Shown: positions 1 to 16,736 of the stretch, in pieces
Layout of the letters: every line of letters starts with the position of its first letter
Numbering within the stretch: position 1 is the first letter of the stretch
DNA from: Paludibacteraceae bacterium
GTDB taxonomy: Bacteria > Bacteroidota > Bacteroidia > Bacteroidales > Paludibacteraceae
Assembly: GCA_017480285.1 (NCBI GenBank)
Contig: JAFVAX010000094.1
Location: 29,229-53,228 of the forward strand
Reading direction: 5' to 3'
DNA: 24,000 bases
Program-made: the position numbers and the translations under genes
Notes under the pieces: model-generated
The model's database searches: none
The model's input: only the letters and a program-made list of their open reading frames with translations
Told to the model about the DNA's origin: nothing

Positions 1-2
1 CG

Positions 3-230
3 GACCCTGAGATTGTTTTTGTTGCCTTGGGGTTGAAGAAAATGTTAGTTTTTGGTAGATCTAAAAATAATGAAACCATATTAGCATGGTGTCCTCACTG
101 CAAAAAAACGATGTCGTTGGAAGAGGCTATACAGAAAAAATGCCCACATTGCAATCATAAAATCTCATCACATATTGAAGTTATCAAAAAAAGGAAATTT
201 GAATGGATATTTAATGTTGAGAAAGTATAA
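3..230 (+). CDS. Small zinc-ribbon protein, or the C-terminal end of a larger protein running off the left edge (first ATG at 42)
   Basis: The frame is open from nt 3 (DPEIVFVALGLKK...). The track start at 27 is TTG. It contains CPHC-13aa-CPHC. The CPxC..SLE(E/D) segment resembles the C-terminus of the next ORF. Confidence 0.35.
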   Translation, partial: DPEIVFVALGLKKMLVFGRSKNNETILAWCPHCKKTMSLEEAIQKKCPHCNHKISSHIEVIKKRKFEWIFNVEKV

Positions 231-10938: not shown

Positions 10939-12135
10939 ATGAATACTATCGAAGAAGCCGTAAAAGATTTCAAAGAAGGCAAGTTTGTCATAGTCGTTGA
11001 CGACGAAGACCGCGAGAACGAAGGCGATTTCATAACATCAGCCGAGATGATAACTCCCGAAAAAGTCAATTTTATGCTACATAACGGCAGAGGCGTGCTC
11101 TGTGTCCCACTCACCGAAGAACGATGTGCAGAACTTGAACTTACCCATCAGGTGAGCAACAACACCTCTATGCTCGGCACACCCTTCACTGTAACCGTCG
11201 ATAAACTTGAAGGGTGTACAACAGGCGTGTCTGCACACGACCGTTGTGCCACTATCCGTGCACTGGCCGACCCTCAATCCAAACCTGCTGACTTCGGCAG
11301 ACCAGGACATATCAACCCACTCTATGCCAAATCACGAGGTGTGCTCCGACGAGCCGGACATACCGAAGCGGCTATCGACCTGTGCCGACTCTCAGGGCTC
11401 CAACCCGCCGCCGCTCTCATCGAGATAATGAACGAAGACGGCACAATGGCACGACTGCCGCAACTTGAACAAACGGCTGAGAAATACGGACTCAAACTTA
11501 TCTCTATAAAAGACCTTATCGCCTACCGGCTGCGCACCGAATCACTTATCGAAAGAGGAGAAACAGTACATCTGCCGACACAATACGGCGATTTCATGCT
11601 TACGCCTTTTAAGCAGATTTCCAATGGTTTGGAACATATAGCACTTGTTAAAGGCAGTTGGGAAGAAGGCGAACCGATACTCTGCCGCGTACACTCGTCT
11701 TGTATGACCGGCGACATCTTCGGTTCTATGCGATGCGAATGTGGCGAACAACTGCACAAAGCAATGCAACTCATTGAAAAAGAGGGAAAAGGCATACTCG
11801 TTTATATGAATCAAGAAGGGCGTGGAATAGGACTTATGAACAAGATTCGTGCGTACAAACTTCAGGAACAAGGCGACGATACCGTTGAAGCCAATATCCA
11901 CCTCGGCTTCGACCCCGATGAACGCGACTATGGTGTTGGTGCGCAGATACTCAGACAGATGGGCGCACAGAAACTGAGACTTATGACCAACAACCCCGTC
12001 AAGCGTATCGGACTTGAGAGTTATGGTATTCAAATTGTGGAGAACATACCACTCGAAATAGCACCCAACCCCTTCAACGAACGCTATATGCGGACAAAAA
12101 AGGAAAAAATGCACCACCTGCTGAAGATGATTTGA
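10939..12135 (+). CDS. ribBA: Bifunctional 3,4-dihydroxy-2-butanone-4-phosphate synthase / GTP cyclohydrolase II
   Basis: N-terminal RibB motifs ([22 protein letters not shown]). C-terminal RibA motifs ([29 protein letters not shown]). 398 aa. Confidence 0.95.
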
Positions 12136-12161
12136 CACAAAATTCTCGCAGATAACGCTGA

Positions 12162-13184
12162 TCACGTGATTGACACATTGAGACCTGAGGCAGTGGCAAA
12201 AAGAAAATACCGTTGCATCTGCTCGTCATCAGGCATCGGGTATTTTGACAAAGCACCAATAACACCTTGCGGACGAAAACGAAGTAAACGAACAGGGATA
12301 GCGGTTTGGAGCGCTGCTCTGTCGGAGGTTAGAACCCTTGCATTTAACACTTGGGCAACATTTGTGAGGATATTCTCTACATCGGTTGAAACGGAGAACT
12401 GCTGAGAGGGAAAATTGCTATTAGATTCTGAAACAAGTTGCTTCGCATCGTGGGGCCGTGCAGAATAAGGAGTATCCTCATTCCGACGAAGGTCGGAATC
12501 TCGCTGAAGAGTATCCTCATTCCGACGAAGGTCGGAATCTCGCTGAAGAGTATCCTCTTTCCGACGAAGGTCGGAATCTCGCTGAGGAGTATCCTCTTTC
12601 CGACGAAGGTCGGAATCTCGCTGAGGAATCTGAGATTCTGAAACAAGTTTAGAATGAGGAATTGAGGAATTGCTAAAAGACGGCAGACACACTATTCGCA
12701 CTTCCGTCAGTTTGCCCAACTTTGACAAAAGACGCAAATTATCCTTTACTATATTATCATTGTCTGCACCTGTAAGACGTTTATACACACTACTATCCCA
12801 CGCTTTCACATCAAGCATAACACCATCTGTGAGTTCGAGCAAACGAGGATATAACTGAAACGGGATAGTGCCATTGCTATCAATAAGACAACTGAGACCT
12901 AATGGCTTGATAAGTTCAAACAACTCCTCCACAAACTCCGCTTGCAACATACACTCGCCACCCGAGACGGTTATTCCACGAATGAAAGGTATGCCTTTCT
13001 TCACTTCTTCAGCCACTTCTGTAGCCGACATTTGGCGAACTTCGTTGTTGGAAGTTCTTTCCCAAGTCTCAGGATTATGGCAGTAGGCACAACGGATGTT
13101 GCACCCTTGAAGGAAGATGGCAGTACGATTACCCGGACCATCAACCGTTGATTGAGGTATTATTTTTCTTACATACCCAAGCAC
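12162..13184 (-). CDS. yjjW: Glycyl-radical enzyme activase (YjjW-like radical SAM) carrying a ~97-aa in-frame repeat insertion
   Basis: GTG start. The N-terminus has VDGPGNRTAIFLQGCNIRCAYCHNPETW (CX3CX2C) and ITVSGGE. The C-terminal IPVRLLRFRPQGV resembles the YjjW tail (from memory). Residues ~169-265 are low-complexity, with QRDSDLRR(K/N)EDT(P/L) x4. Confidence 0.85.
   Translation of the reverse strand: MLGYVRKIIPQSTVDGPGNRTAIFLQGCNIRCAYCHNPETWERTSNNEVRQMSATEVAEEVKKGIPFIRGITVSGGECMLQAEFVEELFELIKPLGLSCLIDSNGTIPFQLYPRLLELTDGVMLDVKAWDSSVYKRLTGADNDNIVKDNLRLLSKLGKLTEVRIVCLPSFSNSSIPHSKLVSESQIPQRDSDLRRKEDTPQRDSDLRRKEDTLQRDSDLRRNEDTLQRDSDLRRNEDTPYSARPHDAKQLVSESNSNFPSQQFSVSTDVENILTNVAQVLNARVLTSDRAALQTAIPVRLLRFRPQGVIGALSKYPMPDDEQMQRYFLFATASGLNVSIT
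12424..12660. repeat. Interspersed palindromic repeat element, copy A (inside the activase CDS)
   Basis: It is bounded by direct repeats gattctgaaacaagtt at 12424-12439 and 12634-12649, 210 bp apart. The conserved core is 12428-12463. An internal tandem array follows. The right end, ctgaaacaagtttagaatgagga, parallels the end of copy B. Confidence 0.7.
12470..12625. repeat. Tandem repeat, 4 x 39 bp, each unit containing an 8-bp-stem hairpin
   Basis: The unit is gagtatcctc(a/t)ttccgacgaaggtcggaatctcgctga(a/g). The hairpin is attccgac-gaag-gtcggaat (tttccgac in units 3-4). Units start at 12470, 12509, 12548, and 12587. Confidence 0.95.
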
Positions 13185-13237
13185 AATTCAAAAATTGCAT
13201 TTATTCAAAGATTTTTATCTTCCACAATATCAACTAT

Positions 13238-14728
13238 TTACACTCCCCTCACCTTCCTATCTTGCAGGTGTCCTGAAGCGTATGCGGGCGCACCAAACTG
13301 TGTAGTGTTCTGTAGCACCGCCTTACCCGCGTTCCATTTCTCCATCTCCGAACGTTTGACCAAATAACCTGTTATGCGCACCAAATCTGAGTCGGAAGCA
13401 TAGAAGGCAATGTATTTCTGCCCTACACTGAAAGCACCTTTAACAATATCAAGCACGGCTGCCGGATTACGCTTGGCAGTTATGTCAAAAGGCAGGATGT
13501 CGGAACAACCTGTCGGGATAAACTTATGGAAACGAGCAGAATGGCGCAGATGGTCGTATATTGACTCCGGCTCATCGCCCACTGGAATACGCACACCCGA
13601 AGTGATGCCATAGTCGGTATCAATACCTACTTGTGCGTGAAGCAACAAACGATGGTTGGCAATCTCACAATACGGACATTCGTATTTAGCGGCAAAATCG
13701 GAAATAATGGTCATTATCTGTTCTGCAAGAGCGTCAGCCTCTTTGTCAGAACCGTATTTCTTGCCTTCGGGCATAAACATATTAGTTGCCTCGGCAAGAC
13801 CTACGAGACCGAACATTGCTACAAACCTGTCGCGCTCAACAAACCCTTCGGTAGCAAGGAAATTGCTCTCAAAGAAACCCGATTTCTCAACGATGAAGCG
13901 TATTCGCTCTGACATATAATCAGCCATACAAAGCAGGGCTTCAGGCAGAAGGTTATGAAGGAAATCGTCTTTATCTTTAGCAAGTTTGGCAAGTCTGGGC
14001 AAGACTACACGAGTAAGAGTATAACTGCCACCGCCGATGGGTAAGATGTTATAGCAGGAAGATATGCCATAACGGTCGTAGGTTGTACGATTCAGTACAT
14101 CGTTGCATATAGCGGGATTAGCCACCTCAAGCGAGCACAAGATGGCTTGTTCGGCAAAACTGTCAGGCGTTATTTGCGGGTCGTATTTAAGTGTCAGGTT
14201 CGGCACTGCCTGCTCAAGTTCTTTATCCACTTCAAGCAACAGCCGACCGGCACGAGTCTCCTCCGGTCCGAGATTAGCGTGCGAGAACGAGTCGGTTATG
14301 GTACGGTCAAGATAAATAAGGAACAAACGAAGTTTTTTCTTTACCTCGACATCAGTCAGATTCGTGATAAAAGGCTCTATGAGTTTGTCCAAATCGCCGA
14401 GAAAGACGGGATAGGTAGTGATTGACGGCACATGCCGATACACCACTTGCAGGAAGGTTAGCAGTTCGTCGAAGTCCGTTGGCGGGTCAAGTTCCAAAAA
14501 CTTAACTCCTTGTTTTACAATCTTCTCATAATCGGGCATTATATAACGCGGACGATAAGGGGCGTTGCCTTCGTTCAGGTTGCAGATAGCACCTTTCTCG
14601 AAAAAGAAACGAGTGCGATCCGGCATTGGAAGGACAGAAAGAGTATCTTCAGCAGCATGAGCAAGAGCATTCACCTTCTGCTCATAACTGAGTTTTTGAG
14701 ATGTTACAATAGAATAGATGTCTGACAT
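13238..14728 (-). CDS. yjjI: YjjI-family glycyl-radical enzyme (function unknown)
   Basis: 496 aa. Motifs: LSYEQK...APYRPRYIMPDYEKI, and a C-terminal glycine-radical-type motif DLVRITGYLVKR. It lies immediately upstream of, and co-oriented with, a radical-SAM activase. Confidence 0.85.
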   Translation of the reverse strand: MSDIYSIVTSQKLSYEQKVNALAHAAEDTLSVLPMPDRTRFFFEKGAICNLNEGNAPYRPRYIMPDYEKIVKQGVKFLELDPPTDFDELLTFLQVVYRHVPSITTYPVFLGDLDKLIEPFITNLTDVEVKKKLRLFLIYLDRTITDSFSHANLGPEETRAGRLLLEVDKELEQAVPNLTLKYDPQITPDSFAEQAILCSLEVANPAICNDVLNRTTYDRYGISSCYNILPIGGGSYTLTRVVLPRLAKLAKDKDDFLHNLLPEALLCMADYMSERIRFIVEKSGFFESNFLATEGFVERDRFVAMFGLVGLAEATNMFMPEGKKYGSDKEADALAEQIMTIISDFAAKYECPYCEIANHRLLLHAQVGIDTDYGITSGVRIPVGDEPESIYDHLRHSARFHKFIPTGCSDILPFDITAKRNPAAVLDIVKGAFSVGQKYIAFYASDSDLVRITGYLVKRSEMEKWNAGKAVLQNTTQFGAPAYASGHLQDRKVRGV

Positions 14729-14765
14729 GGTATTATTCTGGTTAATTGGTTAACTGATTAATTGG

Positions 14766-14928
14766 TTATCCTCATGCTGAACTTGTTTCAGCATCTCTTG
14801 TTTCAGCATCTCTTGTTTCAGCATCTCTTGTCCCAACCCTCATCCTGCACGGCCCCACGATGCGAAGCAACTTGTTTCAGGATCTTTCGGTGAGTATTTT
14901 GAGATCCTGAAATAAATTCAGGATGAGG
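14766..14928. repeat. Interspersed palindromic repeat element, copy B (in the yjjI 5' leader, inverted relative to copy A)
   Basis: It contains the reverse complement of the copy A core (14845-14880). It has hairpins atgctgaa..ttcagcat and atcctgaa-ataaa-ttcaggat, and its own tandem array. Confidence 0.7.
14782..14831. repeat. Tandem repeat, 3.3 x 15 bp (cttgtttcagcatct)
   Basis: Three exact units lie at 14782, 14797, and 14812, followed by a partial unit. Confidence 0.9.
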
Positions 14929-14953
14929 TTTCACCTTTCACTTTTCTCTTCCG

Positions 14954-14985
14954 CAAAGATACTCAAAATAAACTATTTTAGCAAA
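14954..14985 (-). promoter_or_regulatory. Bacteroidota-type promoter for yjjI-yjjW
   Basis: On the minus strand: TTTG (14985-14982), 20-nt spacer, TAtcTTTG (14961-14954). Confidence 0.55.
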
Positions 14986-15019
14986 TTTATGCAATAATTT
15001 TATTTTTTTTGCAGAAAAG

Positions 15020-15051
15020 TTTGCATTTTTGAGAAAAATAATGTATCTTTG
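15020..15051 (+). promoter_or_regulatory. Bacteroidota-type promoter for tRNA-Ser
   Basis: TTTG (15020-15023), 20-nt spacer, TAtcTTTG (15044-15051), about 28 nt upstream of the tRNA. It is divergent from, and back-to-back with, the yjjI promoter. Confidence 0.55.
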
Positions 15052-15078
15052 CACCGCCTTTTAGAAAATTAACTAAAA

Positions 15079-15165
<87 letters not shown>

Positions 15166-15346: not shown

Positions 15347-16645
15347 CTAAATACACATTGCCATATACAGTGGTAGATAGTTTATATCATTTTCTTTGCC
15401 ACCATTATCTTTGCTAAGGACAACGCTCCGTTCCACATATTCTGCAAGTTCGTCAAGTACATTATTGAGGGCGGTATGTTGTTTGTAATTATTGCCTGAT
15501 TTGACTTCCAGTATGCTTACTTTGTTTCCCTCTTTAATTATAAAATCCAGTTCATTACGGCTTTTGCGGTCGTAGTAATGTAGTGTATGTCCGTGTTTGA
15601 TTAGCTCTAATGCTACAAAATTTTCAGTCAGTGCTCCCTCGTTGATTGACAAATCACCTTGCATCACCTGCCATTGAATTTTGTCGTTCCACATTGCACA
15701 CAGCAAACCGGTATCCAAGAGATAGACTTTGAACATATTACGGTTTTCATATTGCTCAAAAGGCAACGACAGGGAGTGTGTGTTGTAGCAGAATAGAGCC
15801 ACACCGGCATCTTGCAGCCATTGGGCTGAATCACCGTATTTCTGCATATTACCCGACTGTTCCAAGTCGCTCAATACATATCGCTTATGGGGTTTGCTTA
15901 ATTGCGTGGGGATAGCATCGAAAAATCGTTTTGCCCGATTCTTTTCGCTACCTGCATATTTGGCGATGTCGTTGCGGTAATTATCAATTATAAGCCGTTG
16001 TTGTCGAATCGTTTCGTTGAAATCCGGATTCTGAAGAAAGGTGGTTACCACTTTCGGCATACCGCCAACTATGAGAAAATTACGGTAGTGCCGCATCAAC
16101 TGACTATGCAGAAACATATCCATCTCACTGTGTTCCGCATAGGTTTGGCGGATGATTCGGATTATATGGTCCCCGACATTATTTGCCCAAAGCCATTCTT
16201 CAAAATCCAACGGAAACATCTCTATTTGACTCTCAAATCCAACGGGATAACTGCTTACATCCGCATAGTTGATACCCAACAGTGAGCCTGATTCGATATA
16301 GTCGAACCGTCCGTCTTCAACCAAAAATTTTATGGCAGTTCGCGCTTTTGGGCAACTCTGTATCTCGTCAAAAAATACAAGTGTCTTGTTTTCCACAAAT
16401 GGTCCATATCCCATTGCGCTTAGTCGAGCAACCACGGTTTGTGTGTCAAGCCTGCCGTTGAATGCTTCTTTTGCTATCGGATCCTGCTCAAAGTTTATTT
16501 CTATGAAATTGGAATAATTCTTTTGAGCAAACTCACGAATAGTAGTGGTCTTGCCCACTTGCCTTGCACCCTTCACCAACAAAGCTTCGTGAGAGTGATT
16601 CGTTTTCCAATTTTCCAACAGACTGATAATTTTACGTTTAAGCAT
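15347..16645 (-). CDS. AAA+ ATPase of the COG1373/DUF4143 type
   Basis: 432 aa. Walker A GARQVGKTT. Walker B LVFFDEIQ. The length and C-terminal region are typical of this family (from memory). Confidence 0.85.
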   Translation of the reverse strand: MLKRKIISLLENWKTNHSHEALLVKGARQVGKTTTIREFAQKNYSNFIEINFEQDPIAKEAFNGRLDTQTVVARLSAMGYGPFVENKTLVFFDEIQSCPKARTAIKFLVEDGRFDYIESGSLLGINYADVSSYPVGFESQIEMFPLDFEEWLWANNVGDHIIRIIRQTYAEHSEMDMFLHSQLMRHYRNFLIVGGMPKVVTTFLQNPDFNETIRQQRLIIDNYRNDIAKYAGSEKNRAKRFFDAIPTQLSKPHKRYVLSDLEQSGNMQKYGDSAQWLQDAGVALFCYNTHSLSLPFEQYENRNMFKVYLLDTGLLCAMWNDKIQWQVMQGDLSINEGALTENFVALELIKHGHTLHYYDRKSRNELDFIIKEGNKVSILEVKSGNNYKQHTALNNVLDELAEYVERSVVLSKDNGGKENDINYLPLYMAMCI

Positions 16646-16647
16646 AA

Positions 16648-16736
16648 TTTAGTGTGTTATTGCAGTTGATTTCGCGTCTTTTTAGTGTGTTATTGCAGTT
16701 GATTTCGCGTCTTTTTAGTGTGTTATTGCAGTTGAA
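16648..16736. repeat. Tandem repeat, about 2.7 x 33 bp, abutting the ATPase start codon
   Basis: The unit is tttagtgtgttattgcagttgatttcgcgtctt, at 16648, 16681, and 16714 (truncated). The first unit begins 3 nt from the ATG at 16645. Confidence 0.9.

Follow-up and report, generated by a model that had tools for sequence, protein, structure and literature searches.

A cluster of hairpin repeats expanded in one Bacteroidales species lies in frame within a probably functional YjjW-type glycyl-radical-enzyme activase

We analyzed a 24,000-nt window of a Paludibacteraceae draft genome (contig JAFVAX010000094.1, positions 29,229 to 53,228; C81:29229-53228 of genome G000, a 2.42-Mb assembly in 107 contigs that is 98% complete), which harbors a gene encoding a YjjW-type activase of glycyl radical enzymes and, upstream of it in the same operon, a yjjI-type gene whose product is its presumed substrate (Table 1). 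The activase gene contains an insert of repeat-family DNA that is absent from its orthologues, and natural alleles of the gene vary in this insert while keeping the reading frame. The explanation that best accounts for these data, and one that we regard as likely, is that a mobile or recombining cluster of hairpin units is tolerated as an in-frame, disordered loop by an activase that is most probably still active.

The 340-residue open reading frame (ORF) at 12162..13184 described in the initial annotation was confirmed, and its product presents the hallmarks of a radical S-adenosylmethionine (SAM) activase: a CX3CX2C motif (C28/C32/C35) whose cysteines are unchanged in all 62 aligned sequences, a DGPGNR loop, a GGE motif at residues 75-77, and matches to the Pfam domains Radical_SAM (PF04055, E 5e-22, residues 23-174) and Fer4_12 (PF13353, E 2e-17). 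The likeness to YjjW, which had been noted initially, is borne out by TIGR04041, the best NCBIfam model for this protein; the match is broken by the insert into three stretches and, at 245.5 bits, stays just below the cut-off of 250.2. The product of the neighboring gene matches the YjjI model TIGR04040 at 654.9 bits (cut-off 498.3), and yjjI also lies next to the activase gene in contigs L029-L036.

Read in mRNA order, the insert opens with a short TGAGGAAT-type tail that is followed by a single type-B unit (27 nt). After a 6-nt spacer come four type-A units of 39 nt and, last, a type-C unit of 48 nt, and the insert encodes the peptide ..NSSIPHSKLVSES..[QRDSDLRR(K/N)EDT(P/L)]x4..YSARPHDAKQLVSESNSN... 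Each type-A unit forms an 8-bp stem with a 4-nt loop (ATTCCGAC-GAAG-GTCGGAAT, about -12 to -13 kcal/mol), and Tandem Repeats Finder (TRF) reports 4.1 copies with a period of 39 and 97% matches at 12468-12627, so that the four 39-bp hairpin units seen earlier are supported by both repeat detection and folding. The type-B copy is degenerate, with one stem mismatch, and folds weakly. Short AATTG-type satellites like the tail of this insert adjoin hairpin units at many other loci. As initially noted, all periods in the insert are multiples of three. The whole insert, folded as RNA, reaches -86.7 kcal/mol, a stability above that of shuffled sequence (z -3.3), and a scan of positions 12100-15100 against Rfam at E values up to 1 matched no family.

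The initial annotation had treated this DNA as one interspersed element at 12424-12660 with 16-bp direct repeats 210 bp apart. Its interspersed nature holds, since BLAST detects pieces of the 12400-12680 region at about 52 further loci of the genome, but the block is a composite of B, A and C units with a wider span (about 12413-12672). The spacing of the direct repeats was correct and their length is 17 nt (AGATTCTGAAACAAGTT at 12423-12439 and 12633-12649, a pattern matched four times with up to two mismatches against 0.03 expected). We considered these repeats as element ends or as a target duplication and rejected both options, because they are the common 5' arms of units C and B. An imperfect 13-nt direct repeat brackets the whole cluster, its right copy (AATTGCTAAAAGA at 12668-12680) being 85% identical to the left one at a spacing of 255, and may be a target duplication or a piece of the satellite tail. 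The idea that the cluster is free of stops in every frame was likewise rejected, as only two of the six frames are open throughout, both of them on the gene strand.

A search of 5.8 billion proteins retrieved more than 5,000 activase homologues. Orthologues with 53-69% identity are 236-248 aa long and lack the insert segment, reading ...EVRIVCLP-xx(x)-PIxTDVENIL... across the insertion site, where a short loop varies in length and sequence. This alignment fixes the insertion point at LPxx(x)PIxTDVENIL and upholds the earlier proposals that removal of the block leaves about 243 aa, the usual size of such activases, and that the C-terminal ~75 aa remain activase-like, as they align with orthologues at positions that include the invariant D268, G307 and V308. 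The insertion-free state was taken from distant orthologues in protein databases because neither activase orthologues nor the yjjI-yjjW operon were found in the 24 same-genus genomes searched. Together with the genome-wide distribution of the hairpin units described below, the lack of this segment in orthologues supports the view of a REP/MITE-like repeat (repetitive extragenic palindromic sequence/miniature inverted-repeat transposable element) tolerated as an in-frame coding insertion.

Six proteins share 93-96% identity with the activase in the regions flanking the insert and have lengths of 340, 337, 311, 301 and 278 aa. The corresponding alleles differ in unit number and composition (Table 1), in agreement with the earlier suggestion that copy number may vary, and every allele is in frame and ends in the same C-terminus (..VSIT*). 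The type-C unit that forms the whole insert in contigs L032-L037 has the loop variant most frequent in the rest of the genome. All allele contigs derive from short-read or k-mer assemblies (JGI, ENA, Logan), which may contain fewer A units than the DNA itself, but the division into three structural classes (B+nA+C, B+nA, and C only) is secure and not explicable by repeat collapse.

These comparisons also bear on whether the block could be a metagenome-assembly artefact or a low-complexity linker ancestral to the lineage of this activase. The genome is a draft in 107 contigs, repeats misassemble easily, and copy-number differences among assemblies could reflect repeat collapse. Independent JGI, ENA and Logan assemblies nevertheless place the units at the same codon position between identical flanks, and the four A units of the window display all four combinations of K/N and P/L, which makes their order determinable. 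An ancestral linker is in turn contradicted by the 57 of 57 more distant aligned orthologues that are devoid of the segment. We therefore deem either version of this explanation extremely improbable.

We then located the insert in a structural model of the activase, a check proposed with the initial annotation. In the AlphaFold2 prediction, calculated from the 62-sequence alignment, 170 residues have a predicted local distance difference test score (pLDDT) of at least 90, and the core exceeds 90 on both sides of the insert. Residues 172-259 fall below 50 and lie between a strand (159-166, EVRIVCLP, beta5) and a helix (269-285). The best Foldseek match of the model is the E. coli pyruvate formate-lyase activating enzyme (PFL-AE, 3cb8_A; E 2e-15, TM-score 0.82 normalized to the target), and a profile match to 3c8f_A (E 2.6e-35) sets the insertion point at 'VVVPGWSDDDD' of PflA. 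The insert is thus predicted to form a disordered loop after beta5 of a PFL-AE-like partial (beta/alpha)6 fold. Its amino acid make-up fits such a loop, residues 169-266, which span the insert, being 37% charged, 42% S/T/N/Q/P and 17% hydrophobic. Since beta5 of radical-SAM enzymes bears the GXIXGXXE SAM-binding motif (PMC9204698), the loop is expected to emerge on the active-site face rather than on the back of the barrel; it would presumably leave the docking of YjjI unblocked.

Within the species, yjjI shows 25-39 synonymous versus 5-11 non-synonymous differences per pair of sequences, with ratios of non-synonymous to synonymous polymorphism (pN/pS) of 0.04-0.09. The part of the activase gene preceding the insert has a pN/pS of 0.05-0.22, with 12 synonymous and 5 non-synonymous polymorphic codons. 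No second glycyl-radical activase-like gene was detected at an E value of 1e-5 or better in this 98%-complete genome, where weaker Fer4_12 matches belong to other radical-SAM ORFs, and the genome contains no PFL-type Gly_radical domain. The strong constraint on yjjI, combined with the presence of a single detectable activase, suggests that the insert-bearing enzyme works, a conclusion that we consider probable on the basis of these sequence comparisons.

The hairpin units of the activase gene belong to a family with many copies in the genome. Units A, B and C share the ends AGAT... and ...ATGAGG and can be described as AGATTC[TC]GAC-CTTC-GTC[AG]GAATGAGG (type A), AGATnCTGAA-ACAAG-TTCAGnATGAGG (type B, with the looser pattern AGATnCTGAA-N3-7-TTCAGnATGAGG) and AGATnCTGAAACAAGTTGCTTCGCATCG..GCCGTGCAGnATGAGG (the longer type C). 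Strict regular expressions identified 214-222 units in the genome and none in a reversed-genome control; these include 72-74 type-B copies, also with none in the reversed-sequence control, and 21 type-C copies. A looser core motif yielded 313 units in 159 clusters. Most strict units (81%) lie outside long ORFs, and the remaining 19% (43 of 222) reside inside ORFs.

At least 22 ORFs carry strict units in frame, counting ATG-started ORFs of at least 120 aa with units located 20 aa or more from either end. A coding insertion of this kind, which the initial annotation had called unusual, is therefore less so than supposed, and intragenic REPs and Rickettsia palindromic elements (RPEs) have been documented in other phyla (PMC10969869, PMC3733652). 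Pfam searches locate repeat-encoded stretches inside or between the domains of an M16 peptidase, an M20/PepD peptidase, an ABC-F ATPase, MurC, TatD, a GlcNAc 2-epimerase and DsbD, and the same unit-encoded peptides, such as PHSDEGQN(L), DSDLRQNE and PHPELVSGS, recur across genes. The unit segment is missing from the MnmE orthologues of 10 out of 10 same-genus genomes searched and from all the dihydrolipoamide dehydrogenase (Lpd) orthologues, which were found in nine of the 10. Four frames of the type-A unit are open, and two hydrophilic ones among them account for 27/28 intragenic units and 16/17 genes (binomial p 1.4e-4).

The family appears to have expanded in this one Bacteroidales species. 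The type-A pattern, allowing up to two mismatches, has 144 matches in its own genome and none in 60 other species of the genus; the exact type-A unit was not found in roughly 185,000 GTDB species genomes, among which a degenerate type-A pattern returned only six unrelated singletons. Metagenome scans for the insertion junction and for type A gave no match, a result that carries no weight because L029 and L031, which contain the pattern, are JGI contigs. The genome encodes a Y1 (HUH) transposase-like protein of 387 aa (C58:12000-13163, L038/L061) that matches PF01797 at 24.9 bits (cut-off 23) and NF047646, the model for REP-associated tyrosine transposases (RAYTs), at 41 bits (E 1e-10), below the cut-off of 80. 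Weaker paralogues occur at C10:28150-29088, C8:3-779 and C78:3377-4261. These proteins, of roughly 340-390 aa, combine an N-terminal Y1/HUH domain (..HIHLVL.., ..YVNDNPRR..) with a long C-terminal extension and are patchily distributed in the genus. No hairpin units lie within 5 kb of C58:12000-13163, and homologues are present in 20 of 40 congeners that are devoid of the hairpin. The data would also agree with recombination or gene conversion among copies as the means of spread.

Several observations weigh against the interpretation that a mobile or recombining cluster is tolerated by a working enzyme. The Y1/RAYT-like gene is a candidate mobilizer, but the evidence is too weak to name it as such, given its NCBIfam score below the cut-off, its lack of flanking units and its presence in hairpin-free congeners. 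Repeat collapse during assembly could account in part for the differences in copy number among alleles (1, 3, 4 and 5 A units). Inside ORFs, 11 of 11 arrays have exclusively 3n periods, compared to 14 of 38 outside; this contrast, which would speak for a filter by selection, is partly circular, as frame-breaking arrays would not be counted as inside an ORF. The outside arrays follow no 3n rule, which indicates that the family has no built-in triplet periodicity and that the intragenic arrays are those that selection let through. Concerning the activase itself, a loop of about 90 residues on the active-site face could hinder the docking of YjjI; the yjjI-yjjW operon may be dispensable, being found in none of the 24 same-genus genomes; and the part of the gene following the insert looks less constrained, with a pN/pS of 0.26-0.78 and 4 synonymous and 11 non-synonymous polymorphic codons, versus 12 and 5 before the insert (Fisher p 0.03).

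The last three points are those expected if the insert had inactivated the activase, leaving a young pseudogene whose frame is open just because its modules are 3n and stop-poor, and the location of the insert right after the SAM-binding strand, together with the two of three gene-strand frames that are open across the cluster, would also suit such a pseudogene. This account is at odds, however, with the low pN/pS of yjjI, which would be useless without an activase when no second one is found, with the retention of frame and stop codon by at least three structurally different alleles, and with the intact catalytic motifs and C-terminal invariant residues. Even in the part following the insert, pN/pS stays below 1 in every pair, and the excess changes sit in a segment that is variable among orthologues too: 7 of the 11 variable residues fall within one stretch (283-296), and this part of the protein is also less conserved among orthologues than the N-terminal part (43% versus 66% identity). 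Furthermore, hairpin units of this family are present in essential genes, murC and mnmE among them. On balance, we judge inactivation unlikely.

The segment around residues 283-296 (12270-12330; ..NARVLTSDRAALQTA..) was observed to exceed its counterpart in orthologues by about 9 aa and has a lower pLDDT, of 67-77. It holds most of the within-species amino acid variation of the activase, and no hairpin unit is recognizable in it.

A second cluster of the same repeat family occupies the yjjI leader, where its type-C unit runs opposite in orientation to that of the activase gene. Positions 12428-12463 match the reverse complement of 14845-14880 without a single difference. The arms of this perfect 36-nt inverted repeat enclose yjjI together with the first two-thirds (5') of the activase gene; they could base-pair within the operon transcript or serve as substrates for inversion or gene conversion. 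The repeat cluster might hence have been co-opted, either as a length-variable contingency locus that tunes the activase or as an RNA or inversion element that controls the operon through the 36-nt complement. The location of both arms on the predicted operon transcript, the differences among alleles in unit number and in the presence of unit C, and the structured nature of the insert RNA would all agree with such a role. Conversely, the operon is intact in alleles L029 and L031 although their activase genes contain no type-C arm, indicating that pairing is not required; hairpin units are found in about 160 clusters with no common context; no Rfam family is matched; and any tandem repeat varies. 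Co-option thus appears very unlikely. We also consider quite unlikely the broader proposal that a switch based on unit number or composition in the beta5 loop, or on the 36-nt complement (through an RNA duplex or DNA inversion), sets the amount of active activase, and through it of glycyl-radical enzyme, in each lineage and that the three-module family is a new species-restricted, gene-invading repeat in the Bacteroidota with its own mobilizing enzyme; were it true, the switch would constitute a repeat-driven contingency locus in the radical enzyme system of an anaerobe.

If the cluster is instead a tolerated insertion, as we favor, it would have either arrived in, or expanded through local duplication within, the variable loop after beta5 (EVRIVCLP) of an activase with the PFL-AE fold. 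Its survival there may be attributed to module lengths that are each a multiple of three, to the lack of stops in the frame that is read, and to a charged, serine-rich and disordered peptide that would leave the (beta/alpha)6 core undisturbed. The activase would then be made as one chain with a floppy loop of roughly 90 residues and would most likely still activate YjjI, while slippage, unequal recombination or gene conversion would shift the number and composition of units and generate in-frame length alleles. A Y1/RAYT-like transposase might possibly contribute to the spread of the units.

The closest parallel is provided by the RPEs (Ogata et al. 2000), which, according to PMC10969869 and PMC3184786, are palindromic repeats lying in frame in a range of unrelated genes, often essential ones, where their translation adds peptide segments that are thought to be surface-exposed and compatible with the fold of their hosts. 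The units reported here are also in frame in many unrelated genes (at least 22 ORFs) and are predicted to be read through. They differ in being modular, 26-48 nt long and often arranged in tandem arrays, whereas RPEs are single elements of ~100-150 bp; in residing in a free-living gut or rumen Bacteroidales rather than in an obligate intracellular alphaproteobacterium; and in having no sequence similarity to RPE-1..10. By analogy, the hairpin family would work like the RPEs without being a member of them.

Similarities are also evident with the GTAG/CGTC-tagged REPs, short stem-loops described in several phyla that are mostly intergenic, with a minority in ORFs and some species-specific families, and whose intragenic clusters encode 43-82 aa in Thauera and R. 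conorii (Di Nocera et al. 2013, PMC3733652). The units of the activase genome are likewise short, high-copy and mainly intergenic palindromes. Unlike tagged REPs, they end in AGAT/ATGAGG and have no terminal GTAG or CGTC, CGTC appearing only at the stem-loop junction of type A; the activase cluster (about 87-97 aa) is at or above the top of the reported range; and the share of strict units in ORFs (19%) is high. The REP/REPIN-RAYT system (REPtron) resembles this family in its high-copy hairpins with conserved flanking bases and in the presence of a Y1 (HUH)-like gene family in the genome, but here the RAYT-like gene lacks flanking units, no REPtron was found, and many units are head-to-tail instead of forming inverted doublets. 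As regards MITEs, the 17-nt direct repeats of the activase insert are unit arms and an imperfect 13-nt direct repeat flanks the cluster; the BrickBuilt MITE of P. gingivalis is strictly intergenic (PMC10969869). A literature search found no description of hairpin-repeat read-through in genes of the Bacteroidota. In-frame, gene-invading palindromic repeats are, however, already established in Rickettsia and other bacteria, and the principle is not new.

Compared to the E. coli PFL-AE (3CB8/3C8F) and YjjW/YjjI, the activase has the same fold and the same CX3CX2C, DGxGxR and GGE motifs, and its gene adjoins a YjjI-family gene. It departs from PFL-AE in the disordered insertion of ~90 residues after beta5, and from E. 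coli YjjW in the absence of its ferredoxin-like Cys-rich insert (TIGR04041 positions before about 85 are only partly matched).

Although the finding opens no new biological principle by itself, it points to short selfish hairpins settling repeatedly within working genes, including essential ones, of a free-living gut or rumen Bacteroidales, where they would give rise to new disordered segments and length polymorphism. Such inserts split family-model matches, as illustrated by the YjjW model falling just under its cut-off, and inflate low-complexity regions in annotation. The allele series (0, 1, 3, 4 or 5 A units, with or without C) constitutes a natural test of the tolerance of the beta5-alpha5 loop.

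Table 1. Coordinates and composition of the activase locus, its repeat units and alleles, and unit-bearing ORFs elsewhere in genome G000. Positions without a contig prefix refer to the window.
Feature	Position	Strand	Details
YjjW-type glycyl-radical-enzyme activase gene	12162..13184	minus	340 aa, GTG start
yjjI-type glycyl radical enzyme gene	13238..14728	minus	496 aa; PF11230 E 1e-204; TIGR04040
Whole repeat-derived insert in activase	about 12413..12672	minus	~260 nt; roughly residues 172-259
Imperfect 13-nt direct repeat AATTGCTAwwAGA, left copy	12413..12425		AATTGCTATTAGA; brackets whole cluster; repeat search
Type-C unit, longer hairpin	12423..12470	minus	48 nt; mRNA sense CCTTATTCTGCACGGCCCCACGATGCGAAGCAACTTGTTTCAGAATCT; encodes PYSARPHDAKQLVSES
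Four tandem type-A units	12468..12627	minus	39 nt each; encode QRDSDLRR(K/N)EDT(P/L)
Type-B hairpin unit	12633..12659	minus	mRNA sense CCTCATTCTAAACTTGTTTCAGAATCT; encodes PHSKLVSES
Mini-satellite tail adjoining type-B unit	12655..12672		TGAGGAAT x2.2; TRF; encodes part of ..SNSSI..
Second cluster of the same repeat family, yjjI leader	14780..14890	minus	type-C unit and three 15-nt tandem units
Activase allele, this genome			B+4A+C
Activase allele L029			B+5A, no C
Activase allele L031			B+3A, no C
Activase allele L030			B+1A+C
Activase alleles L032-L037			C alone, 51 nt; six contigs, six ENA assemblies
Unit-bearing ORFs (G000)	C106:4210-5682, C12:5504-6898, C13:24072-25574, C17:370-2445, C2:5099-6475, C3:6692-8449		
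Unit-bearing ORFs (G000), continued	C3:12701-13606, C3:30506-32197, C31:21416-22747, C37:16555-18096, C59:2455-5646, C85:7927-9084		

The 12 unit-bearing ORFs listed in Table 1 are of housekeeping type, comprising Lpd, an M16 peptidase, PepD, ABC-F, a permease-HMA fusion, MurC, TatD, DsbD, a GlcNAc 2-epimerase, MnmE, a FAD/Fe-S oxidase and a methyltransferase. On contig C59, three paralogues arranged in tandem and 711-776 aa long (C59:40586-42916, 44675-46933 and 46939-49074) present the same A+B pair (DSDLRQNE.NPHPELVSGSQ) at the same position. Either an insertion older than the duplications or its later spread through gene conversion would explain this. Other low-complexity inserts are seen in MnmE (SEYSENSELSEFSEFSEFSEKSDNSENSD, C37:16555-18096) and MurC (ARNEGSARNEGSAWSEGS, C3:6692-8449), indicating that more than one repeat family invades genes in this genome.

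The yjjI-yjjW pair can be described as an accessory locus in this species, for which horizontal acquisition is possible and which has been resident long enough to be colonized by species-specific repeats. Most of the yjjI leader (14739-14890) is repeat DNA, including the type-C unit, a 15-nt repeat (CTTGTTTCAGCATCT x3.3 at 14782-14831, TRF) and 8/16-nt repeats (TGGTTAAT) right upstream of the yjjI start codon; the L029 leader differs in unit composition. Elsewhere in the window, a perfect 33-nt tandem repeat (TTTAGTGTGTTATTGCAGTTGATTTCGCGTCTT, x2.7) lies at 16648-16735, directly upstream of an AAA_14/DUF4143 gene ending at 16645.

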